Assembly: GCA_041596615.1 (NCBI GenBank)
Contig: JBFHIG010000001.1
Coordinates: 5,262 to 69,261 of the forward strand
DNA from: Candidatus Moraniibacteriota bacterium
GTDB taxonomy: Bacteria; Patescibacteriota; Minisyncoccia; Moranbacterales; DUUL01
DNA length: 64,000 nt
Reading direction: 5' to 3'
Shown: positions 10,272 to 56,334 of the stretch, in pieces
Numbering within the stretch: the stretch's first letter is position 1
Layout: each line of letters starts with the position of its first letter
Notes under the pieces: generated by a model
What the model was told of the DNA's origin: nothing
Databases searched by the model: none
What the model saw: the letters and a program-made list of their open reading frames with translations, nothing else
Translations under genes and position numbers: made by a program

Positions 10272-12797
10272 ATGTTAAGAATATTTAAAAAAATAATGCT
10301 AAACAGAGTCATTATTATTTTTTTAGTAATAATGACCTTGGGAATATTTTTGAGAGTAAATAAATTGGGAGAGCAATCCTTTTTTGCAGATGAGTTCTTG
10401 GGGATTAATATTGCTACAGGGTACAATAAAACGGGAGAATGGAAATATTGGGAATTTAATACAAATACGCTTAGTGACGAGGTTTACACAAGATCGAATG
10501 TTTATTATTGGCAAGTTGCAAAAGTGTTTGATTTTTTGCCGACATCTGAAGAGACTGCTAGACTTGTAAGTGTTGTTTGGGGAGTGATCGCAATGATTAC
10601 ACTATTTTTTGTGACTTTTTTTGTGACAAGAAACTGGACAATTGCACTTATAGCACTCTTTCTTTCTGCTGTTAGTATTTCAGAGCTTATATATGACAGA
10701 AAGTTGAGAATGTATTCTATGTTTGCCCCGGTTTATCTTTGGCTTTCCTACGCAGTTTATAATTTCCTAGAGTATAAAAAAAGTGCTATCAAGATTCCTT
10801 TTTTAAAAAAATTGTGCAAATATAAAAAAGATAAACAGCAAACTTGTTTCGTGGAGAGAATTTTCCAAAAAACGGGGTTGAACTGGGCTTGGTTCTTGCC
10901 GGCCCTACTTTTGGGATATTTGTCTTTGAAGGTACATCTTTTGACAGTGAATATTCTACCAACAATTTTAGCCTACTTAGTGGTCATGGGCATTTACTTA
11001 GCTATTAGCAAAAGGCAAATCAAGAATCGCTATTTAATTTACATAGGGATATTTTCTTTATCAGCAGTCCTCTTTTCTGCTGGTGCATCACTCCTGAAAA
11101 ATATTCCAATCATTGGTTACGTTATCGATAATGCTATCGGAGGATTGGCTGGTGTTAGCTGGGTGTTTCATTGGACATATTTGCAAAAAGTTACTCTTGA
11201 TTACAGCTATATTCTTCTGGGACTCTTTTTTATAGTTATTGGGGGGTATTTAATGATAAAAAAATATGATAAAATAGGTCTTTGGACGGTATTATCATTT
11301 TTAGTACCATTGTTGCTAGGGATTTTTTCCTGGAGACGAAATGTTGGGGATCAATATATATATTTTACACAACTTTTTAAAGTAATGATTGTGGCATGTG
11401 GAATATATTTTTTCTCAAAAAAAGTTTCTAGTTTATTCAGTGCAGATAAAAAAGTTTTTCCGGGAATTATTTCTTTAGTCTTACTGTTTATTATTAATAT
11501 ATCTTTCTTTTACTCCGGAGAAGGCTTTTATAAAAGTCCTAAGAGTTGGGAGTACACAAACTATAAAGAAGGTTTTAAATATTTTTTAAAAAACAAAGGA
11601 GAAGATGCTATCCTTATTACAAGACCGTTGTCTAACTATTACCTAGAGGGAAGTAATACCAACATTCTTACTTATAACGATGATAACGAAATAACGCCAA
11701 CAAAGATATTTCAAGCACAAAATAAACACGATGAAGTCTGGGTTATTTTTTCAAAAAACACGAATATTCAAGGAGACGCAAGAAGGTTGATGGAGAAAGA
11801 GTTTGAGCTTATCGAGACTCAATATACAAACCAAAAATTAAATATTTATGTTTGGAAAAAGAAACAGGGGAATATAAAAATAGGTTTTATTACAGATGCG
11901 CATTGTCTTGCTAAGCAAAACAAATTAACTTTAGATTGGGACTTAAGAAGAAGTTGTGAAGAACCATTGAACTATTTTGTAAATAAAATGAACAATGACT
12001 TTAAGCCGGACATAGTCATTAATGGTGGCGATTTCGTTGATGGTGGTGATGGCAATGCCGTTGGAGATTTTATCAAAGCAAAAAAGCTTCTAAACAAATC
12101 AACCGCACCTGTTTACGATGTTTTGGGAAATCACGAAGTGAATAAATTTACAAAAGAAGAATGGTTGAAACTGACCGGAAATGAAAAAACTTACTATAAA
12201 GTTGATACAAATGGTTTTAGAATAATAGTTCTGGACGGTAACTTTACCCCTACCGGAAAAGAAACCGGACCTGATAATTCCTCTTATCCTGGAAGTATAA
12301 ATCAAGAACAGTTCTTGTGGCTAGAGAAAACGCTGAAAAGTGCAGATGGCTTGCGTAGCATCGTATTTATTCATCAACCACCAATAGAAACTGACAATAG
12401 GGTGCAAAACAGACTTTTTGTTGATGCTGAAAAATTAAGAGCACTATTTTCAGAATATAACGTCGAGGCTGTTTTGGCGGGGCATATCGAAAGATATTGC
12501 AAAATGAATTTTGGGACTGATACCGACTATTATGTTTTACAAGGTTTCTGGAAATCCAACAAAGACTTGAAAGAGGAGTTTCAATACAAAAAAGGAGCTG
12601 TTTTCAGTGAGATAACAATAGGCGGGGAAATTGAAGTAAAGACTTATTATACAGACAAAAATGGGGTAGACTATAATTCTTTTGTGATGAACTTAGATAA
12701 CTCTAATTGTTTAAATGGCGGGACCGTTATTCCCGAGGAGCTTAGAGAGGATTTCAAGGAATATGAAGACGTGGACCAAATAGAAAGTATGGAATAG
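10272..12797 (+). CDS. Fusion protein: N-terminal polytopic GT-C-like (ArnT/PMT-type) membrane domain plus C-terminal calcineurin-like metallophosphoesterase
   Basis: About 12 hydrophobic spans, with a first-loop acidic motif FFADEFLG. The C-terminus has the full MPE motif set: ITDAHC, GGDFVDGGD, LGNHE, FIHQPP, AGHIE. Confidence 0.6.
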   Translation: MLRIFKKIMLNRVIIIFLVIMTLGIFLRVNKLGEQSFFADEFLGINIATGYNKTGEWKYWEFNTNTLSDEVYTRSNVYYWQVAKVFDFLPTSEETARLVSVVWGVIAMITLFFVTFFVTRNWTIALIALFLSAVSISELIYDRKLRMYSMFAPVYLWLSYAVYNFLEYKKSAIKIPFLKKLCKYKKDKQQTCFVERIFQKTGLNWAWFLPALLLGYLSLKVHLLTVNILPTILAYLVVMGIYLAISKRQIKNRYLIYIGIFSLSAVLFSAGASLLKNIPIIGYVIDNAIGGLAGVSWVFHWTYLQKVTLDYSYILLGLFFIVIGGYLMIKKYDKIGLWTVLSFLVPLLLGIFSWRRNVGDQYIYFTQLFKVMIVACGIYFFSKKVSSLFSADKKVFPGIISLVLLFIINISFFYSGEGFYKSPKSWEYTNYKEGFKYFLKNKGEDAILITRPLSNYYLEGSNTNILTYNDDNEITPTKIFQAQNKHDEVWVIFSKNTNIQGDARRLMEKEFELIETQYTNQKLNIYVWKKKQGNIKIGFITDAHCLAKQNKLTLDWDLRRSCEEPLNYFVNKMNNDFKPDIVINGGDFVDGGDGNAVGDFIKAKKLLNKSTAPVYDVLGNHEVNKFTKEEWLKLTGNEKTYYKVDTNGFRIIVLDGNFTPTGKETGPDNSSYPGSINQEQFLWLEKTLKSADGLRSIVFIHQPPIETDNRVQNRLFVDAEKLRALFSEYNVEAVLAGHIERYCKMNFGTDTDYYVLQGFWKSNKDLKEEFQYKKGAVFSEITIGGEIEVKTYYTDKNGVDYNSFVMNLDNSNCLNGGTVIPEELREDFKEYEDVDQIESME

Positions 12798-25466: not shown

Positions 25467-25594
25467 TGTTTGAGGAATTGTTATCCATCCGTGTGAATGT
25501 TAACTAATTCACCGACAGTTTTGTGAAAATTGAAAGGGTGTCATTCCCACCTCAGCATTTGCGGGGCAAACCCGCTCCAGTTTGAAAAAATAAA

Positions 25595-25632
25595 ATAGAT
25601 GCATCTGTAGGTGTATCTATAGATGCATCTAT
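25595..25632. promoter_or_regulatory. Pair of palindromic sites ATAGATGCATCT / TATAGATGCATCTAT (candidate operator)
   Basis: The 10-bp palindrome AGATGCATCT occurs at 25597..25606 and 25621..25630, centres 24 bp apart. The same pair with the same spacing recurs at 50285..50318. Confidence 0.4.
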
Positions 25633-25779
25633 TTTGGTTTGTGAAAAGTCCAATAAGAAGTCGTGAATTTGTTTGACATAGAATCTTTTTTGTGTCAAAA
25701 TATAAAGTTGCTAGAGGTTTGAAATAACTTTAAGAGCAGTATTTTAAAAACTTTTTTCAAAAAAGAAAGGGAGATGGAG

Positions 25780-36575: not shown

Positions 36576-36972
36576 TGGTGTGGAGGTGATGGGAGTTGAA
36601 CCCATGTCCAAAATTGATTCTCTGAAACCTTCTACAAGCTTAGTCCGCTTATTTTTACGCATTGCTAATTAAAGCAGACAAAAAATAACATTACGTTTTT
36701 TCCTTCTGTGCGCTTGTTCCATTTCAAAGGAAGAAAATGGCTGCATCTCAAAAAGTGACGCTAGATCCAAAATATTGAGAATTATTTGGCTAACGGGCTG
36801 TTACCTGTTTAGGCTACAGCGGCAGCGAAAGATGGTGCAAAAGCTTGCGCAATTGCGTTCTTTGCTTTAGTAAATGTGTTTGCATTTAAACTTTTTGCCA
36901 TAGTTTTACAAGAATATGGCAGCTTGACTTGCTAGTTAAAAAGTACACAACCTGTCGAAGCCTAGCACCCCC
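36576..36972 (-). ncRNA. ssrA: tmRNA (SsrA), one-piece, CCA encoded
   Basis: On the minus strand the 5' end is GGGGGTGCTAGGCTTCGACAGG and the 3' end is GGACATGGGTTCAACTCCCATCACCTCCACACCA. The acceptor stem has a G3:U pair and there is a T-arm. Tag ORF ...ANTFTKAKNAIAQAFAPSFAAAVA-TAA lies at 36883..36809. Confidence 0.9.
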
Positions 36973-36975
36973 AAA

Positions 36976-37422
36976 CTAATGGCGCTGCTTCATAATTCGT
37001 CCGATTCGGACATCATCTTCGCGTCGCTTGATGACCTGGCGCTTATCAAACTTTTTCTTTCCTCTCGCTAGAGCAAATTTAAGTTTGATCTTACCATGAT
37101 TATTATACACCGAAAGTGGTACCAATGTCAATCCTTCCGTGCGAACTTTCTCTATAAGTCTGTCTATTTGCTTCCTTTTTACCAAAAGTTTTCTAGAGGA
37201 AGTTGGATTATAATCAGAAACAGTTGCATGTTTGTATAACGGAACGGATGAATTTGTTAGAAATAGTTCCTCCTTGTGTACCGAAACAAAAGCTCCCTTA
37301 AGAGACATGTGGCCTTGTTTTATTGTTTTTACTTCATATCCCTTTAACACCAAGCCAGCCTCGATTTCTTCCAGGATTTCATAGTCAAAAAATGCTTTTC
37401 TGTTTCTAGCTAGCGTGCTCAT
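36976..37422 (-). CDS. smpB: SsrA-binding protein SmpB
   Basis: RKAFFDYEILEEIEAGLVLKGYEVK...LLVKRKQIDRL... is canonical SmpB. Confidence 0.95.
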   Translation of the reverse strand: MSTLARNRKAFFDYEILEEIEAGLVLKGYEVKTIKQGHMSLKGAFVSVHKEELFLTNSSVPLYKHATVSDYNPTSSRKLLVKRKQIDRLIEKVRTEGLTLVPLSVYNNHGKIKLKFALARGKKKFDKRQVIKRREDDVRIGRIMKQRH

Positions 37423-37599: not shown

Positions 37600-37735
37600 G
37601 CGCTGATCTGAGTTTGCCTGCCCGTACTGGTTCAGGCGGGTAAGTCGGACTTTTATTCCAAGAAACAACAAAGAAAACACCCTTTCAAAATACAAGCTAC
37701 AAACTTTGAACCGGGTTGTAAACCCGCTCCAGCGC
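37600..37735. repeat. Composite REP/BIME-like element: expanded type-B hairpin plus type-A hairpin
   Basis: Begins GCGCTGATCTGAGTTT[GCCTGCCCGTACTGGTTCAGGCGGG]TAAGTCGGAC and ends GAACCGGGTTGTAAACCCGCTCCAGCGC. Homologous to the copies at 49168..49345 and 51960..52176. Confidence 0.8.
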
Positions 37736-37778: not shown

Positions 37779-38993
37779 TTATTTATATCTCAATGCATCT
37801 AGCGGATCAAGAGAGCTGGCTCTTTTTGCAGGGACAAGCCCCGTTGCGAAGCCAACCATAGTTGCTGCTATTACGATTGTTACGATAAACCAAAGTGGTG
37901 AATAAAAGAGGTCTATTGGTTCTCCACCAAATCGCCCAGAAACAAAATTCAAAAGTAGATTAAAAGCCTCACCCTCGAGCATACCCATTAAAATTCCTGC
38001 AAGTCCGCCAAAAAATCCCATTACAGAGGATTCTGCCACAAAGGTGAGCAAGATATCTTGATTTGAAACCCCGATTGATTTCATGATTCCAATTTCCTGA
38101 GTTCTTTCCATGAGAGTCACGGTCATAGTGTTGAACATTCCAATGGCAGAAACAAACAAGGCGATGATTCCAAACATTCCGAGCACGATTTGAATTACAC
38201 GAAAAACTTTATTGGCTTGATCCACCGTTTCTGAGAGTGATGAAACCATAAAGCCTTTTTCTGTTAACACGTCTCTTAGTCTGTTTACATCTCCGGAATT
38301 TTTTGCCTTTACTTTTGCTTTTGAAAAGCGTGGAATTGTCGTATATTCAAGGACATCTTTGATGTTTACATATACAAGTGGCTCATCTTTTTCAATTACA
38401 CCAACGATTTCAAATGGCTCAGGGATTTCCACTTTTTTAAAAGATTCATTCGCAACGCTATTCTCAGTATCACCGGTGTTTTCAGGAACTCTAATCTCGA
38501 TTCCAATTTTTTGACCGATTATTTGATCGGCTTCTTGTTTGAATATTTTTGTGAAGGCAGAGGTCACAATTACACCATTCTTTTTTTCATCACTAAGTTC
38601 CTCTCCTTCATCAACTGCAATTCCATCCAATTTCAAGAAAGAGGAAGTGACAATATACGTGGAGATCGAAGATGTTAATTCGTTGAAATTGATTTGAGAA
38701 GTGATTTGTAGCAAGGGGCTCACCTCGGTTACGTTGTCTATGCTTGAGAGCTCTGTTACAACTTGAGGAGTAATCACTGCTTGCCCTTCGCTTGAAGGAC
38801 TTACATCAAGTGCAAGCAAGGAGTCGGAAGTGGTGATTTTTTCTAAAAGGACATTTTGTAAACCATACCCAAGTGACACCAGAAACAGAATTGCAGAGAT
38901 TCCAACGCCCATCCCAAGAATTGTCAAAAGAGTACGCGTGGTACGCGCCTTAAACATTCTTGTTGATAATTTTAAGATATCCAGTAATCTCAT
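37779..38993 (-). CDS. ABC transporter permease, MacB/FtsX family
   Basis: N-terminal TM, large periplasmic domain and a C-terminal FtsX 3-TM module (IGIMKSIGVSNQDIL...). Paired with the upstream ATPase. Confidence 0.8.
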   Translation of the reverse strand: MRLLDILKLSTRMFKARTTRTLLTILGMGVGISAILFLVSLGYGLQNVLLEKITTSDSLLALDVSPSSEGQAVITPQVVTELSSIDNVTEVSPLLQITSQINFNELTSSISTYIVTSSFLKLDGIAVDEGEELSDEKKNGVIVTSAFTKIFKQEADQIIGQKIGIEIRVPENTGDTENSVANESFKKVEIPEPFEIVGVIEKDEPLVYVNIKDVLEYTTIPRFSKAKVKAKNSGDVNRLRDVLTEKGFMVSSLSETVDQANKVFRVIQIVLGMFGIIALFVSAIGMFNTMTVTLMERTQEIGIMKSIGVSNQDILLTFVAESSVMGFFGGLAGILMGMLEGEAFNLLLNFVSGRFGGEPIDLFYSPLWFIVTIVIAATMVGFATGLVPAKRASSLDPLDALRYK

Positions 38994-43812: not shown

Positions 43813-44036
43813 ACGTGGGGGATTTGTTGAATGGGTTGGGGATGGTTTTTGTTTTTGGTAGAGAGGGGAAGACGGAAATAATACAGTTGAAATACTGGTC
43901 AAACACAAAGAGAGATTGTATAATAAAAGTAGGTTCCTTGTGAGTATAGGAGCTTTAAGAAGAATTAATAAATCTAGAGGAAACCCAGCTTCAATGTGAA
44001 GTATTCATAGAACTTCTAATTATTGACAAAAATACA

Positions 44037-46776: not shown

Positions 46777-46818
46777 GGTGTCTTGAAAAATAAATTTTTG
46801 GATAGGGAAAAATTTCTT

Positions 46819-46845
46819 CGCTGGAGCGGGCTTGTAGCCCGCTCC
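46819..46845. repeat. Type-A REP hairpin
   Basis: CGCTGGAGCGGGCTTGTAGCCCGCTCC: GGAGCGGGC / GCCCGCTCC perfect 9-bp stem with a CGCT tail. Confidence 0.75.
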
Positions 46846-46897
46846 CATGGTTGGAGCTTCTGTCTAAAAAACAAAAAATGCCTTTAATCAAAATGAA

Positions 46898-47104
46898 CAA
46901 TAAAAGTTATAAGTTTAAAATAAATTCTTTGTGAGAATTAAAACCTTAACACGAACCAATGAACCAGGCTACCCGCCTGAACCAGTACGGGCAGGCAAGC
47001 CCGCTCCAGCGCGAAGGCACAATAAAGTCTGCAATATGCTAAAATAAAAACAAAGCATTTCCCGGGCAAGTGCTGATAAAAGTTGTAAACTGAAAACAAA
47101 TGAA
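46898..47104. repeat. BIME-like mosaic (degenerate module D, module F, expanded type-A end CCCGCTCCAGCGC, module C, module D)
   Basis: Segment-by-segment identity to 48130..48230, 52054..52132 and 52719..52755 (see findings). Confidence 0.75.
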
Positions 47105-47213: not shown

Positions 47214-47981
47214 ATGCAGGAAAAACAAAAACAAGCAAAAAACATATCCAAACTTTTCAGAGGGGCCAAGATGGTTGTTCTGATTTCATTTATGCTCATT
47301 GTTGCAGCTGGAATAGCTTTATGCTTTTTTGTAGCAAGAGAGACATCTCCGGCCGCTGTCACTAGCCAAATAATTGACCAACAAGAAACGCCAATCGCCC
47401 CAGTTCAAAAAAAAGTCGAAATCTCGTCAACAGTTCTTAATCCAAAGGTTGATGGACTGGAATGGAAAGAAATTACACATGCTAACTTTTGGAAAAATCC
47501 TGAGCTTTTTGCTACTCCAGATTATAAATTTGCGAACATAAAATTCTCCTATCCTTCGAGCTGGAAATTTGATTGTTGTGGTGATACGGATCGGGGCAGT
47601 GCTCATTTTATATTTTCTTCAGAAGAGAAAAAGGGTGATTCGCCATATATTTCAATTATGGACTATAGTTTGAGGGGATGTCCTTCTGGAGAAACAACAT
47701 GTGCCATGGATAAGCAAGTTACAAAGATGCCAAAGGAGAAATACGATGATTTGGTTGAGGCAATTCAAGCTGATGCAAAAGTAAAACCAAAAAAGAGCTT
47801 GAAAGGTTTGGGAGTTGAAGCTTTTAACTATGAATATGCCGATGAAAAAGGAATGAAAACTGATTCTTATATATTTAAAACAGGCGAAGACGTTGTTATA
47901 ATTTCATTTGGTCATTACGATGAATTTGAGTCCGGATTTATAGATGATTTTTTAGGAAAGATAGAAAAGGATATAAACTAA
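47214..47981 (+). CDS. Signal-anchored hypothetical protein
   Basis: 255 aa with an N-terminal TM (MVVLISFMLIVAAGIALCFFV). The outer domain has a Cys pair, FDCCGD. Confidence 0.5.
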   Translation: MQEKQKQAKNISKLFRGAKMVVLISFMLIVAAGIALCFFVARETSPAAVTSQIIDQQETPIAPVQKKVEISSTVLNPKVDGLEWKEITHANFWKNPELFATPDYKFANIKFSYPSSWKFDCCGDTDRGSAHFIFSSEEKKGDSPYISIMDYSLRGCPSGETTCAMDKQVTKMPKEKYDDLVEAIQADAKVKPKKSLKGLGVEAFNYEYADEKGMKTDSYIFKTGEDVVIISFGHYDEFESGFIDDFLGKIEKDIN

Positions 47982-48004: not shown

Positions 48005-48109
48005 GTGCTGGAGCGGGTTTGCAACCCGGTTCTATACTTCAAAGCAACATTATAATATTTTCACCGCGTCTTAAAACAAAAGGTCCGAGTTGCAAACTCG
48101 GACCAGCGC
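48005..48109. repeat. Two-hairpin REP doublet (type A left end, type B right end)
   Basis: GTGCTGGAGCGGGTTTGCAACCCGGTTC ... GGTCCGAGTTGCAAACTCGGACCAGCGC. The ends are imperfect inverted repeats of each other. Confidence 0.8.
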
Positions 48110-48129
48110 AAAGCCAGACGATTGGTATT

Positions 48130-48230
48130 GGTCAAGTGCAAATGAAAGTTGTAGACTAAAAGTAAATTATTTGTGGGAATAGGAACTTTAACACAAACTA
48201 ATGAACCGGGCTACAAGCCCGCTCCAGCGC
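48130..48230. repeat. Mosaic: module D, module F, type-A REP end
   Basis: GGTCAAGTGCAAATGAAAGTTGTAGACTAAAAGTAAATTATTTGTGGGAAT...AATGAACCGGGCTACAAGCCCGCTCCAGCGC parallels 46898..47012. Confidence 0.75.
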
Positions 48231-48381
48231 GAAAATGGAAAGTCATCTTGGTAGCGTCAGGCTTATTTTTATTATACAGTCCACTATTTTTCCTGGGAGT
48301 AGGTTTAATCTCTTATATGCTTTTGGATTATTGTGACAGCAAAATACGTGAATCGAGGCGTTCTAAAGAAAATATTCTCTA

Positions 48382-48460
48382 GGCAAGTATTGATAAAAGT
48401 TGTAAACTGAAAATAAGTGAATTAATAAGAAGAAGAGCGAGTTGCAAACTTGGACTAGTG
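48382..48460. repeat. Module D plus a degenerate type-B hairpin
   Basis: GGCAAGTATTGATAAAAGTTGTAAACTGAAAA, then GAGCGAGTTGCAAACTTGGACTAGTG (a decayed form of GGTCCGAGTTGCAAACTCGGACCAGCG). Confidence 0.65.
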
Positions 48461-49167: not shown

Positions 49168-49345
49168 GCGCTGGAGCAACTCAGTTCGCGCTGGAGCGGG
49201 TTTCCAACCCGGTCCTATATTTCAAACCAACATTATAATATTTACACCGTGTCTTAAAATAAACAGTCCGAGTTACCCGCCTTTGCAAGCCATAGCGAGA
49301 CAGGCCCGCCTGAACCAGTACGGGCAGGCAAACTTGGAGCAGTGC
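49168..49345. repeat. BIME-like mosaic in inverted orientation relative to 51960..52176
   Basis: GCGCTGGAGCAACTCAGTTCGCGCTGGAGCGGGTTTCCAACCCGGTCC ... AGTCCGAGTTACCCGCCTTTGCAAGCCATAGCGAGACAGGCCCGCCTGAACCAGTACGGGCAGGCAAACTTGGAGCAGTGC. The second part is nearly the reverse complement of 51960..52040. Confidence 0.8.
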
Positions 49346-49380
49346 AAAAAACAAGTAAATTAACCCCTAGTCTAAAATAA

Positions 49381-50193: not shown

Positions 50194-50282
50194 TGATGGT
50201 TTGTTTCCTTGTACTGATTTGAATCTGTGGTCAGGTTTTGTAATTCAAGTCAATATGGGCACAAACAAAGCAGTTATTCTAA

Positions 50283-50320
50283 ATAGATGCATCTATAAAG
50301 TACTCTATAGATGCATCTAA
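50283..50320. promoter_or_regulatory. Second pair of TAGATGCATCTA palindromes
   Basis: AGATGCATCT at 50285..50294 and 50309..50318, centres 24 bp apart, as at 25597..25630. The spacer sequence differs between loci (8/14 identical). Confidence 0.4.
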
Positions 50321-51928: not shown

Positions 51929-51959
51929 AATTATGGCAAATTCGTTATGATTAAAATAT

Positions 51960-52176
51960 TGCGCTGGTCCGAGTTTGCCTGCCCGCACTGGTTCAGGCGG
52001 GCCTGTCTCGCTATGGCTTGCCAAGGCGGGTAACTCGGACCTTTTATTTTAAAACACAACAAAATCTGCAATATGCTAAAATAAAAGCAAAATATTTTAT
52101 AGGCAAGCGCCAATAAAAGTTGTAAACTAAAAAGAAATTAATAAAAAGATAGACCAGGCCAAAAGCCCGCTCCAGT
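51960..52176. repeat. BIME-like mosaic: expanded type-B hairpin, module C, module D, type-A end
   Basis: GCGCTGGTCCGAGTTT[53-nt insert]TAACTCGGACC, then ...AATCTGCAATATGCTAAAATAAAAGCAAA, GGCAAGCGCCAATAAAAGTTGTAAACTAAAAA, ...GCCCGCTCCAGTAC. Confidence 0.8.
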
Positions 52177-52201
52177 ACAAAAACTTCTTAAAAATATCTA
52201 C

Positions 52202-52666: not shown

Positions 52667-52678
52667 GCCGATATTTTT

Positions 52679-53338
52679 GCGCTGGTCCGAGTTTGTAACT
52701 CGGACCTTTGTTTCAAGACACAATAGAATCTGCAGTATGCTAAAATAAAAACAAATCATTGATACATACACAAAATGCCTTCCGTAAAGTTTGATAAGAA
52801 AATGTCTTCTGGTAGTTTCTTTATTACGCTGACTGTCAAAAATTGGTATTATATTTTTGATAGACATAATCGTTGGGAGATTATAGCCGATTCTTTGGAA
52901 TATTGTCAAAAGAAAAAAGGATTAAAGCTGTTTGGATTTGTTTTTATGTTGAATCATATTCATTTAGTGATAATGTCTGATGATGCACTAGGATTTGTTC
53001 GAGATTTCAAAAAGTTCACTTCTAAGAAATTGCGTGAAAATATTGAATTGAATGAACCCTCCATTATTGAATTATTTTCGAAAGAAGATGGCTCATACAA
53101 ATTTTGGAAATCTAGCAATATGCCAAAAGTTATTAATTCTGAAAAATTTTTATTACAAAAACTTGACTATATTCACAATAATCCCGTTAGAAAAAGATAT
53201 GTGGGAAAAGCAGAAGATTGGTACTGGTCTAGTGCTAATCCAAATTGTAGATTGAGGGTTGATGCTTTGTGGAATTAGTTTTATTTTTGTTTTCGTTGGA
53301 TTTAAACAAAGGTCCGAGTTACAAACTCGGACCAGCGC
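52679..53338 (+). mobile_element. RAYT unit: REP-associated tyrosine transposase gene flanked by inverted REP hairpins
   Basis: 52679..52706 (GCGCTGGTCCGAGTTTGTAACTCGGACC) is the exact reverse complement of 53311..53338. Each forms a hairpin with a 10-bp stem. Confidence 0.8.
52775..53278 (+). CDS. REP-associated tyrosine transposase (IS200/IS605-type Y1 HUH transposase, RAYT-like)
   Basis: HUH motif in FVFMLNHIHLVIMS. Catalytic-Tyr helix LDYIHNNPVRKRYVGKAEDWYWSS. 167 aa, single gene with no tnpB. Confidence 0.8.
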   Translation: MPSVKFDKKMSSGSFFITLTVKNWYYIFDRHNRWEIIADSLEYCQKKKGLKLFGFVFMLNHIHLVIMSDDALGFVRDFKKFTSKKLRENIELNEPSIIELFSKEDGSYKFWKSSNMPKVINSEKFLLQKLDYIHNNPVRKRYVGKAEDWYWSSANPNCRLRVDALWN

Positions 53339-53354
53339 AGAAGAAAATAAGTCT

Positions 53355-54085: not shown

Positions 54086-54193
54086 TTTGTTGACGAATTG
54101 CTTGAGATGTGCCATTTTATGTATGGTATTGTTTCCATAAATAATTAGTAGGATGGCTTGAATCTTCAAGCAAAAAAAACGGGGGAAATTGCA
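54086..54193 (+). promoter_or_regulatory. Promoter plus 5' leader module, copy 2 (more diverged)
   Basis: TTGACG at 54090..54095. Leader hairpin GCTTGA-ATCT-TCAAGC (54156..54171), then AAAAAAAACGGGGGAAATTGCA-ATG. Confidence 0.5.
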
Positions 54194-54553
54194 ATGAGGA
54201 AGTGTAGGAAAACAAGAATAGGGAAGAGAATGTTTTTTCTTTGCAAAACAATTTTGACAATCTTGGTCATTACAGTCATAGCAGGAAGACCTGCTGTAGC
54301 TTATTGTGATGAAGCTGACCAAGCAGAAAAGAAATTTATAGTCTCTTACAGTGCTGAAAAAAGCAGTGATGCCGAAAGTGACCAAGGGAAAATGAAAATA
54401 CCCATGAGCACTCCTGTGCCAGCACAGAGTAGTGAAATATATGCTCTTGAAAGTGAGATTGCTGTCAAAAAGGTTGCTGAAACAAGGGTGAAGGATCTTT
54501 ACCCTGAAAAAGATGGATGGATCAATCAAAAGATTGAGATTAAACCATATTAG
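54194..54553 (+). CDS. Small signal-anchored protein, cassette family member 2
   Basis: MRKCRKTRIGKRMFF...VIAGRPAVAYCDE...DQGKMK...KKVAETRVKDLYPEKDGW...IKPY is paralogous to 54759..55112. The start is set by the conserved Shine-Dalgarno (track start 54158). Confidence 0.6.
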   Translation: MRKCRKTRIGKRMFFLCKTILTILVITVIAGRPAVAYCDEADQAEKKFIVSYSAEKSSDAESDQGKMKIPMSTPVPAQSSEIYALESEIAVKKVAETRVKDLYPEKDGWINQKIEIKPY

Positions 54554-54758: not shown

Positions 54759-55112
54759 ATGAGAAAGGCTAAAGAAACGACGATAGGAAACGGAATGGCA
54801 ATTTTTCTTTACATCATGATTTTGGTCATTGCAATTGTTGCAGGAAGACCAGTTTTGGGTCATTGTGAAGAAACCAATCAGGGGCAGCGGTTTATCATCC
54901 GCTACCACGTCGAGAAAACCCAGGAGGTTAAAATTGACCAAGGGAATGTGAAAATGTCCTCCAGTTCTCGTATTGAGAATAAGTGGGCGGAGATAGGCTT
55001 TTATAAAGACAAGGCCACTGCCAAAAAAGTTGGAGAAGAAAGAATGAAAAAGTTACATCCCAAAGACGGATCAACAAAAACATCTGTAACAGTAATTCCT
55101 TATGGGGAATAA
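54759..55112 (+). CDS. Small signal-anchored protein, cassette family member 3
   Basis: MRKAKETTIGNGMAIF...IVAGRPVLGHCEE...DQGNVKM...KKVGEERMKKLHPKDG...VIPYGE. Confidence 0.6.
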   Translation: MRKAKETTIGNGMAIFLYIMILVIAIVAGRPVLGHCEETNQGQRFIIRYHVEKTQEVKIDQGNVKMSSSSRIENKWAEIGFYKDKATAKKVGEERMKKLHPKDGSTKTSVTVIPYGE

Positions 55113-55511: not shown

Positions 55512-55527
55512 GCGCTGGAGCGGGCTT
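55512..55527. repeat. Solo type-A REP half-site
   Basis: GCGCTGGAGCGGGCTT is identical to the left half of the type-A hairpins, with no matching right arm. Confidence 0.5.
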
Positions 55528-55584
55528 GACCACCAGTGTTGGCTCAAGGAGATGGTAGTTTTAAATTAATAGGAAATTTTATTT

Positions 55585-56334
55585 ATGAGTAGAGTTATTG
55601 CTATCTCAATTGTGGTATTTTGCATTCTAATTTTATGGGAGTTGATTTTCCCTAAAAGGAAATTTTCAACAAGCGTAAAAATTAAGTCATATTTGACTGA
55701 CGGGCTTATTATTGTTAGCAATAATTTCTTGTTTTTTATTTTTTCGATAGGAAGCTTATATTATATTCTGGAAAAATTTTTCAGCTTGCATATACTTTCC
55801 GGTCTTGATTTTAGTAATATTTTTATTTTTCTCGGAATGATAGTGTTTCTGGATCTTTTGGTTTATTTCTGGCACTTACTCAACCATAAAATTTCTTTTC
55901 TTTGGATGTTTCACAAGGCACATCACACTGAGGTTTATTTAAACGCGATGAGTGGTTTGAGGTTTCATGTTGGTGAGTTATTGTTATCAGTCATATTCAA
56001 ATCTTTATTACTAGTGGTTGTCTTTGGAATACCAATTGATATAATATTAATCAGTGAGAGTTTGGTGATTTTGTTTTCAATGTTTCATCACACGAACATT
56101 GCCTTTAGAGGAGAAGAGATGCTTTCAAAGCTGATAATTGTTCCGTATTTACACCAGACACATCATTCCATCGACAGGGCAGACCACGACAATAACTACG
56201 GAGTGGTTTTCTCTTTTTGGGACAGAATGTTTGGAACGCTTCTCGATAAGGAGAACAAACAAATTGGTCTTGGAAATATTAAATTTCAAAATTTCATTAA
56301 ATTCCTAAAGTTCGGTTTTAAATATAAATATTAA
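55585..56334 (+). CDS. Fatty-acid hydroxylase / sterol desaturase family membrane protein
   Basis: Histidine boxes HLLNHK, HKAHHT and HQTHHS, with 4 or more TM spans. Confidence 0.75.
   Translation: MSRVIAISIVVFCILILWELIFPKRKFSTSVKIKSYLTDGLIIVSNNFLFFIFSIGSLYYILEKFFSLHILSGLDFSNIFIFLGMIVFLDLLVYFWHLLNHKISFLWMFHKAHHTEVYLNAMSGLRFHVGELLLSVIFKSLLLVVVFGIPIDIILISESLVILFSMFHHTNIAFRGEEMLSKLIIVPYLHQTHHSIDRADHDNNYGVVFSFWDRMFGTLLDKENKQIGLGNIKFQNFIKFLKFGFKYKY

Follow-up and report, generated by a model that had tools for sequence, protein, structure and literature searches.

The locus described here raises the question of whether a single Y1 transposase gene, bracketed by two inverted copies of one hairpin in the genome of a Candidate Phyla Radiation (CPR) bacterium, is an ordinary insertion sequence (IS) or belongs with the REP-associated tyrosine transposases (RAYTs) and their repetitive extragenic palindromes (REPs). 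The gene lies in a 64-kb stretch of DNA (35% GC) of a Candidatus Moraniibacteriota genome, hereafter called the window, to which all unprefixed coordinates refer. We conclude that the locus is most probably a REPtron, in which a RAYT (TnpA-REP, class 2 of the Y1 HUH superfamily) is accompanied by its cognate REP hairpins. New here are an unpaired 5' foot that is not GTAG, the CPR host and inverted hairpin doublets that bear the ends of the RAYT gene; the novelty is modest. The locus is composed of the following features.

52675-52716, + strand: left arm of the inverted repeat, with the foot GCGCT at 52679-52683 and a T-rich tail, TTTGTTT, after the hairpin
52684-52706, + strand: left type-1 REP hairpin, GGTCCGAGTT-TGT-AACTCGGACC
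52707-52774, + strand: RAYT leader (5' untranslated region), with a conserved extended -10-like TGCTAAAAT at 52738-52746
52775-53278, + strand: RAYT gene, an open reading frame (ORF) of 167 amino acids with an ATG start
53301-53342, - strand: right arm of the inverted repeat, with a type-1 hairpin at 53311-53333 and the foot at 53334-53338, read on the - strand

The 28-mer GCGCTGGTCCGAGTTTGTAACTCGGACC at 52679-52706 is the perfect reverse complement of 53311-53338 and is contained in a full inverted repeat of 42 nt with 95% complementarity between its arms. When folded as single-stranded DNA (ssDNA), both arms formed a 3-nt loop on a 10-bp stem, with an energy of -11 kcal/mol (z = -5.9 and -6.7); an equally good fold was obtained in none of 200 shuffles of either hairpin. 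The unpaired GCGCT foot is directed outward at both ends of the module. Sequence match and folding therefore bear out a preliminary description of this DNA, which had reported an exact inverted pair of 28-mers with a 10-bp stem, a 3-nt loop and an outward foot. Sites matching the hairpin core with up to three mismatches number three in the window, compared with 0.00 expected by chance.

The protein matched the NCBIfam model NF047646 (REP_Tyr_transpos) with 85 bits against a cutoff of 80, covering model positions 8-146 of 146. Its HUH motif is H61-I62-H63 and its catalytic tyrosine is Y132. An alignment with 27 homologs that are 54-93% identical to the query shows no variation at H61, H63, Y132, P137 and W111, confirming the HUH motif and catalytic tyrosine previously assigned to the 167-residue ORF. 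The tyrosine motif, Y132-I-H-N-N136-P137, has the form Y---NP, the signature of class 2 (TnpA-REP) (Quentin 2018). An AlphaFold (AF2) model with a pLDDT (predicted local distance difference test) of 90.4 gave Escherichia coli TnpA-REP in complex with a REP hairpin (4ER8) as its top match in the PDB, with an E value of 4.8e-8, a template modeling (TM) score of 0.66/0.67 and a root mean square deviation of 3.1 Å over 148 columns. The transposases of IS608, ISDra2 and IS200 ranked behind it (E ~4e-5, TM ~0.5), so that the predicted fold appears to be closer to TnpA-REP than to the IS200/IS605 transposases. The match to 4ER8 from sequence only was marginal (E 0.23, 18% identity). The RAYT model score, the Y---NP motif and the 4ER8-like predicted fold together uphold the earlier assignment as a RAYT-type transposase.

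The same data bear on the alternative that the locus is an ordinary, still autonomous IS200-type insertion sequence of ~665 bp with tnpA only, in which case the doublets described below would be miniature inverted-repeat transposable elements (MITEs), the gene remnants would be dead copies, and nothing would be domesticated. We consider this unlikely. The protein failed the NCBIfam IS200 model (NF033573, transpos_IS200; 15.4 bits against a cutoff of 55), and its tyrosine motif is of the class-2 form rather than Y----Q, which has been reported for class 3 and described as related to the class 1 motif (Quentin 2018). As previously stated, the gene stands alone: no tnpB-like neighbor is present, the flanking ORFs encoding a 154-residue protein with no family match and a YfcE/Metallophos_2 phosphodiesterase, and no identical full copy is found in the window. 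IS200 itself consists of tnpA only, so the absence of tnpB does not exclude an IS. The ends of IS200/IS605 elements are not inverted repeats but distinct subterminal left and right hairpins on one strand. The ends of the present module are inverted copies of one hairpin, and these ends, the failed IS200 model and the 4ER8-like predicted fold argue against an IS. The 64 kb hold a single intact RAYT gene, flanked by type-1 hairpins, and for the homolog P0006 a single position on a 1.3-Mb contig is on record; as far as this DNA shows, both weigh against an IS.

REP hairpins are not restricted to the RAYT gene. Two stem types share the foot GCGCTGG: type 1, GGTCCGAGTT/AACTCGGACC, and type 2, GGAGCGGGYT/ARCCCGSTYC; in type 2, the fourth pair is usually a G·G mismatch. 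A search for the foot plus left arm with at most two mismatches returned 13 copies (5 of type 1 and 8 of type 2) and none in shuffles. Restriction of the hairpin to this one locus, which the preliminary description had set as a refuting condition, is thus not seen. REP-derived 16-mers are the most repeated 16-mers of the entire window. The 13 copies are confined to intergenic gaps of the 37.6-55.5 kb interval, where most of them follow the stop codon of a co-directional gene at a distance of 10-35 nt. Their dispersal is therefore real but, within this window, local. The window has no intact cognate RAYT for the type-2 hairpins, this gene being represented only by 3'-end remnants; the remnants are ~75% identical. 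A further similarity at 43893-44000 (69%) was judged unconvincing and left out of the counts. An Rfam search gave no match in the RAYT/REP region, its sole match in the window being a transfer-messenger RNA (tmRNA).

The protein family is large, with 1127 word-indexed matches, the best 120 of which are 53-93% identical to the query. Clusters at 50% identity numbered 3586 at E ≤ 1e-3 but only 22 at E ≤ 1e-30, and the subfamily of ~167 residues is therefore tight. The source names among the matches listed include Moranbacteria, Patescibacteria, Paceibacterota, Nitrospirota, Brocadiaceae and Thermodesulfobacteriota. All seven homologous loci examined show the same design. Locus L001, whose RAYT is 93% identical in amino acid sequence, carries identical type-1 hairpins and several doublets. 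Loci L008 and L029 (RAYTs 70% identical) have compensatory stem changes, GATT/AATC and GCAT/ATGC, and the RAYTs of L005 and L010 (63-65%) are flanked by type-2 stems. The RAYTs of Jettenia (Planctomycetota) and of a Nitrospirota locus (56-58%) have hairpins of the form …GC followed by GGGTTCAGGTT-TGT-AACCTGAACCC, which match in the TGY loop, the TT/AA closing pairs and the GC at -13/-12 from the loop.

Covariation was analyzed in 11 hairpins picked by their position beside RAYT genes, pattern-selected hairpins being excluded as circular. Of the alignment cells, 94.5% were paired, and five of the ten pairs showed double changes, a result reached in 0 of 500 shuffles. The stem is thus upheld by compensatory changes among relatives. 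In the foot GCGCTGG, positions C4 to G7 (CTGG) are invariant in the aligned hairpins beside RAYT genes.

A metagenome scan for the exact 28-mer gave one match, in a 1.2-kb contig (L035). A genome scan with a degenerate hairpin pattern gave 26 stretches, 10 of which (L014-L017, L020, L022, L023, L027, L031 and L034; GC 0.58-0.71) were dropped as likely chance matches. The second 167-residue ORF of L008 is not a RAYT, and the pyruvate kinase, DnaG and GIY-YIG genes near the RAYTs of L005 and L008 do not represent true synteny because the gene order differs. Metagenome-assembled genomes (MAGs) labeled Bdellovibrionales and Micavibrio (L024, L028 and L029, from CAZKWX01; L010 and L025, from CAYRUU01) carry the identical type-1 28-mer or type-2 hairpins, and their RAYTs are 63-70% identical to that of the window. 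These occurrences are either cross-phylum transfers or mis-binned or mis-labeled CPR contigs.

Away from the RAYT gene, the hairpins of the window are found in the following arrangements.

25560-25585, + strand: type-2 right end (…CAAACCCGCTCCAG) in decayed form, ~185 bp downstream of the stop codon that ends the pyruvate kinase gene (25374)
37600-37735: inverted doublet of 136 bp, with a type-1-like hairpin carrying a 24-nt loop insertion at 37600-37650 (+ strand) and a type-2 hairpin at 37705-37735 (- strand)
46818-47059: type-2 doublet, with a perfect type-2 left hairpin at 46818-46845, a RAYT 3' remnant, a type-2 right hairpin carrying a 24-nt loop insertion at 46960-47012 and a type-1 leader copy at 47014-47059
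48005-48230: composite remnant, with a type-2 left hairpin at 48005-48032, a type-2 leader, a type-1 hairpin at 48082-48109 (- strand), a RAYT 3' remnant abutting it at 48111-48182 and a type-2 right hairpin at 48203-48230
48434-48460, - strand: degenerate hairpin, with a 3'-remnant-like stretch before it at 48365-48433
49168-49347: inverted doublet, with a partial foot/arm duplication at 49168-49187, a type-2 left hairpin at 49188-49215, a type-2 leader and, at the far end, a type-1-like hairpin carrying a two-unit loop insertion at 49264-49347 (- strand)
51961-52178, + strand: ORF-less mini-element, with a type-1 left hairpin carrying a 24+29-nt loop insertion at 51961-52042, a leader copy at 52043-52096, a RAYT 3' remnant at 52098-52150 and a degenerate type-2 right hairpin at 52152-52178
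55512-55530, + strand: half type-2 REP (foot and left arm only), upstream of the gene starting at 55585

Four of these arrangements (37600-37735, 46818-47012, 49188-49347 and 51961-52178) consist of two inverted REPs with a short spacer, as do REPINs (REP doublets forming hairpins). Similar doublets are present outside the window in L012 (1550-1717), L024, L028 and, several times, L001. In alignments, two parts of the RAYT module are still present in the doublets: the leader (~55 nt following the left hairpin, with a conserved TGCTAAAAT) and, ahead of the right hairpin, the terminal 30-70 nt of the coding region. The doublets are therefore internally deleted RAYT modules. The doublet of L024 and L028 is the L029 module minus its ORF, which was removed between two AAACCAAAACA direct repeats. 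In the window, the doublet at 49168-49347 matches 51959-52057 in reverse with 92% identity, and that at 37600-37735 occupies the gap between the ORFs 36976-37422 and 37779-38993. The remnant at 48111-48182 translates to KPDDWYWSSANESCRLKVNYLWE followed by a stop (tblastn match) and resembles the C terminus of the type-2-flanked RAYT in L010. ORF-less derivatives that retain both ends are MITE-like, and a second RAYT lineage has left remnants within 5 kb; both observations would also suit an IS.

A 24-nt unit, CCTGCCCG[T/C]ACTGGTTCAGGCGGG, is inserted in the loops of some REPs, always between the TG and the T of the TGT loop. It was found in the window at 37617-37640, 46972-46995 (- strand), 49305-49328 (- strand) and 51978-52001 and in L001 at 12566-12589, in type-1 and type-2 hairpins alike, and it is twice followed by a second unit of 29 nt. 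Insertion lengthens the hairpin, which reaches -22.6 kcal/mol at 51961-52042. The 24-nt unit was never seen outside REP loops in the window and loci L001-L037, and this restriction is the most unusual detail of the system. One might regard these loci as REPIN formation in progress and the 24-nt unit as a second-order REP parasite or as the footprint of RAYT-catalyzed joining in the loop, but we judge such a scheme improbable. Were the footprint explanation correct, the cleavage site would differ from that of E. coli TnpA-REP. Beside complete hairpins there are also partial tandem duplications, comprising the foot and half a hairpin, at 49168-49187 (GCGCTGGAGCAACTCAGTTC, ahead of 49188), at L001 9886-9903, at L029 ~1650-1665 and in the flanks of L040, where a unit of 24 nt occurs as a threefold repeat. 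These duplications could be products of slippage or of abortive strand transfer.

By analogy with E. coli TnpA-REP (4ER8) and IS608, the RAYT protein would bind its hairpin on ssDNA. It would read the unpaired 5' foot, which here is not GTAG but GCGCT and has its conserved GC at positions -13/-12 relative to the loop, and cleave the strand via Tyr132. The non-autonomous doublets could then be mobilized or amplified by the RAYT in trans.

A different possibility is that the hairpins are primarily regulatory elements of the host, namely intrinsic terminators or mRNA-stabilizing stem-loops, with a promoter in the leader, retained for this role, and that they have ceased to be substrates of the Y1 enzyme encoded beside them. 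All three copies of the type-1 hairpin with TTTGTTT were scored as intrinsic terminators, most REP copies are located 10-35 nt 3' of the stop codons of co-directional genes, and ORF-less leader copies at 47014-47059 and 52043-52096 retain TGCTAAAAT upstream of the + strand genes starting at 47214 and 52202. These leader copies may act as donated promoters. Nevertheless, the terminator-like signals face into the module at both RAYT ends, so that half of them cannot serve + strand genes. Termination does not involve the conserved unpaired foot (GCGCTGG), foot and hairpin design co-vary with the RAYT lineage across phyla, and all catalytic residues are kept under purifying selection. We therefore regard a purely regulatory role as very improbable. 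The inward terminator-like hairpins could insulate the RAYT gene from read-through, which would be a side effect at best. A promoter scan of the window was at background level (34 found compared with 33 expected), and for the leader we claim nothing beyond the conservation of TGCTAAAAT.

Several data speak for a functional unit that is being maintained. Comparison of the window RAYT with that of L001 gave a dN/dS of 0.043 at a dS of 0.73. The noncoding hairpin and leader are 84-87% identical between the two loci (87% for the leader), compared with ~53% at the synonymous sites of the gene, showing that the RAYT gene, its leader and its hairpins are all under purifying selection. Such old copies under strong selection are unlike the short-lived copies of an IS. 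Homologs were found on only 5 of 72,556 plasmid records, all with at most 40% identity, and a phage sequence search found no phage carrying one; near absence from plasmids and absence from phages again speak against an IS.

Mobility is suggested by other data. In L008 the RAYT is 70% identical to that of the window while the pyruvate kinase is only 42% identical, which suggests horizontal spread, and members of the subfamily with 54-60% identity are found in several phyla; both would fit an IS. The preliminary description had called the system domesticated. Set against the purifying selection, the discrete boundaries of the module, the 93%-identical copy in other surroundings, the ORF-less remnants close to the intact gene and the cross-phylum spread lead us to accept a RAYT/REP system but not its domestication.

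Several observations weigh against the REPtron assignment. The Pfam Y1_Tnp model, a check suggested at the outset (PF01797), gave 22.2 bits, slightly under its cutoff of 23, although the RAYT model passed. Four of the five residues that contact GTAG in E. coli TnpA-REP, as listed by Quentin 2018, are replaced, only the Trp being kept, and the canonical GT[AG]G guide is absent from the hairpin foot. All REP copies of the window fall within 18 kb, apart from one decayed copy at 25.6 kb, and a strict hairpin pattern has 6 matches in the window, where the closest named relative (L011) has a single one in its entire species-representative genome. Homology to L001 (88%) covers exactly 52675-53339 and does not go beyond the inverted-repeat boundaries, the flanks being unrelated and the neighbor genes different; a discrete, 93%-identical module in other gene surroundings is the pattern expected of a mobile unit, and of an IS in particular. 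Finally, we infer the enzymatic action of this subfamily on its hairpins by analogy. With respect to the foot, REPs of subclass 2.6 and class 3 likewise lack GT[AG]G (Quentin 2018), and the motif therefore does not define all RAYTs.

The host was identified from the pyruvate kinase encoded in the window, which is 100% identical to an NCBI protein from a 149-kb contig and 82% identical to the pyruvate kinase of Candidatus Moraniibacteriota GCA_041583775.1 with the same upstream neighbor. Every named relative of this pyruvate kinase is from Moraniibacteriota or Patescibacteria, and the earlier inference of a CPR-like host was therefore right.

Other features of the window and of L001 were noted in passing. 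The tmRNA gene is full length (36578-36972, - strand; 152 bits). The REP-rich stretch at 46.1-55.6 kb is a run of co-directional small genes, mostly without a Pfam or NCBIfam match, and may be a variable region of the genome. The products of two adjacent ORFs at 54158-54553 and 54759-55112 are small paralogs that have a hydrophobic segment at the N terminus, share an AGRP…C motif and gave no family match. Palindromes of 12 bp, TAGATGCATCTA, paired ~13 nt apart at 25595-25632 and 50281-50319, lie upstream of the + strand genes starting at 25774 and 50558 and look like operators for a dimeric regulator. In L001 (11241-13987), the RAYT adjoins a bAvd gene like those of diversity-generating retroelements and a reverse transcriptase gene, and a pair of type-1 hairpins (11646 and 12707) brackets a gene for 175 amino acids.

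To our knowledge, work on RAYT/REP systems has dealt almost exclusively with Proteobacteria whose genomes are large. Should an episymbiont-type genome of ~1 Mb prove to contain a working REPtron and REPIN-like doublets, this would mean that such elements persist even under extreme genome streamlining. Doublets that bear RAYT gene ends offer a readable record of the origin of REPINs from full modules, and a short perfect hairpin with a non-GTAG foot, kept from CPR to Planctomycetota and Nitrospirota, offers a compact substrate for studying how Y1 enzymes read their guides. In practical terms, REP repeats clustered in variable regions will fragment or mis-join CPR metagenome assemblies. The novelty of the CPR setting had been overstated, since the JGI and NCBI pipelines already label many homologs, including CPR ones, RayT. 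The statement that such a system had not been characterized in that setting stands, our literature search having found no paper that ties RAYT, REPIN or REP to CPR or Patescibacteria. The earlier remark that RAYTs are described mainly in Proteobacteria understates the literature, in which RAYT/TnpA-REP classes are known from many phyla, among them Cyanobacteria, Bacteroidetes, Chlorobia and Planctomycetes (Bertels 2017; Quentin 2018).

Among known systems, the best structural match (TM 0.66) is the REPtron of E. coli, formed by TnpA-REP (RAYT, YafM) and its REPs and bacterial interspersed mosaic elements (Nunvar 2010; Ton-Hoang 2012; Messing 2012, PDB 4ER8). Common to both systems are a single Y1 HUH enzyme of ~165 residues, REP hairpins that flank the gene in inverted orientation and carry an unpaired 5' foot, a Y---NP motif and a Trp equivalent to W94. 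They differ in the foot, GCGCT instead of GTAG, and in the replacement here of the residues corresponding to Q95, E100, H101 and R104. The stems in the window are short and perfect with a 3-nt loop, whereas those of E. coli are long and bulged, and REPs, of which E. coli has hundreds, are very few here.

The closest published REP design is that of subclass 2.6, found mostly in Bacteroidetes, whose "atypical" REPs have the feet GCTG, CTGG or GCTA, stems of 9-10 bp and TGT or TCT loops (Quentin 2018, Table S1). Examples are GCTG-CCGCGCGGC-TGT-… of Owenweeksia and GCTA-GCGCTCGTT-TGT-AACGAGTGC of Zobellia (Quentin 2018), which are matched by GC-GCTG-GTCCGAGTT-TGT-… in the window. The best homologs from cultured organisms are from Bernardetia (Bacteroidota), with 37-40% identity and the same YIHNNPV motif. 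Differences are seen in the distance from HUH to Tyr (~70 residues here compared with a median of 82 in subclass 2.6) and in the Bernardetia plasmid homolog, which has 184 residues with an insertion and flanking hairpins with a TGT loop but a different foot. Resting on hairpin design and the similarity to Bernardetia, the link to subclass 2.6 is suggestive only.

The REPIN-RAYT systems of Pseudomonas and Enterobacteria (Bertels & Rainey 2011; Groups 2 and 3) resemble the present one in having intergenic inverted REP doublets of ~115-220 bp, a RAYT (here one intact copy in the window) that is flanked by REPs of its own type, and a separate RAYT lineage for each of two REP types. The window, by contrast, has about ten clustered copies rather than hundreds, its doublets still bear recognizable RAYT leader and 3' coding sequence, and the subfamily is common to several phyla and so not evidently vertical. 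The window RAYT shows marginal similarity to the Group 2 enzyme of E. coli (E 0.23).

IS200/IS605 elements (IS200, IS608 and ISDra2) and their MITEs share with the present module the HUH/Tyr chemistry, a size of ~0.7 kb as in tnpA-only IS200, ORF-deleted derivatives and, presumably by the analogy drawn above, recognition of hairpins on ssDNA. The differences from them have been given above: the failed IS200 model, inverted ends, class-2 tyrosine motif, a predicted fold that appears more distant, and the absence of tnpB and, in the window, of multiple identical copies. TIRYTs (terminal inverted repeat-associated tyrosine transposases) and their TIRtrons (Di Nocera 2013; Quentin subclass 2.1) are similar in that a Y1 gene is bracketed by terminal inverted repeats, of 42 nt in the present case. 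TIRYT repeats are not hairpins and have the consensus GGGG[AT][CG]A[CG], and the proteins have C-terminal helix-turn-helix domains (Quentin 2018), whereas in the window each arm of the repeat is itself a hairpin and the protein lacks a domain of this kind. Non-IS Y1 genes were found to be enriched in large genomes (Quentin 2018), and, according to Bertels & Rainey, only Group 2 and 3 RAYTs associate with REPINs. A REPtron with doublets in a genome of ~1 Mb goes mildly against both trends.

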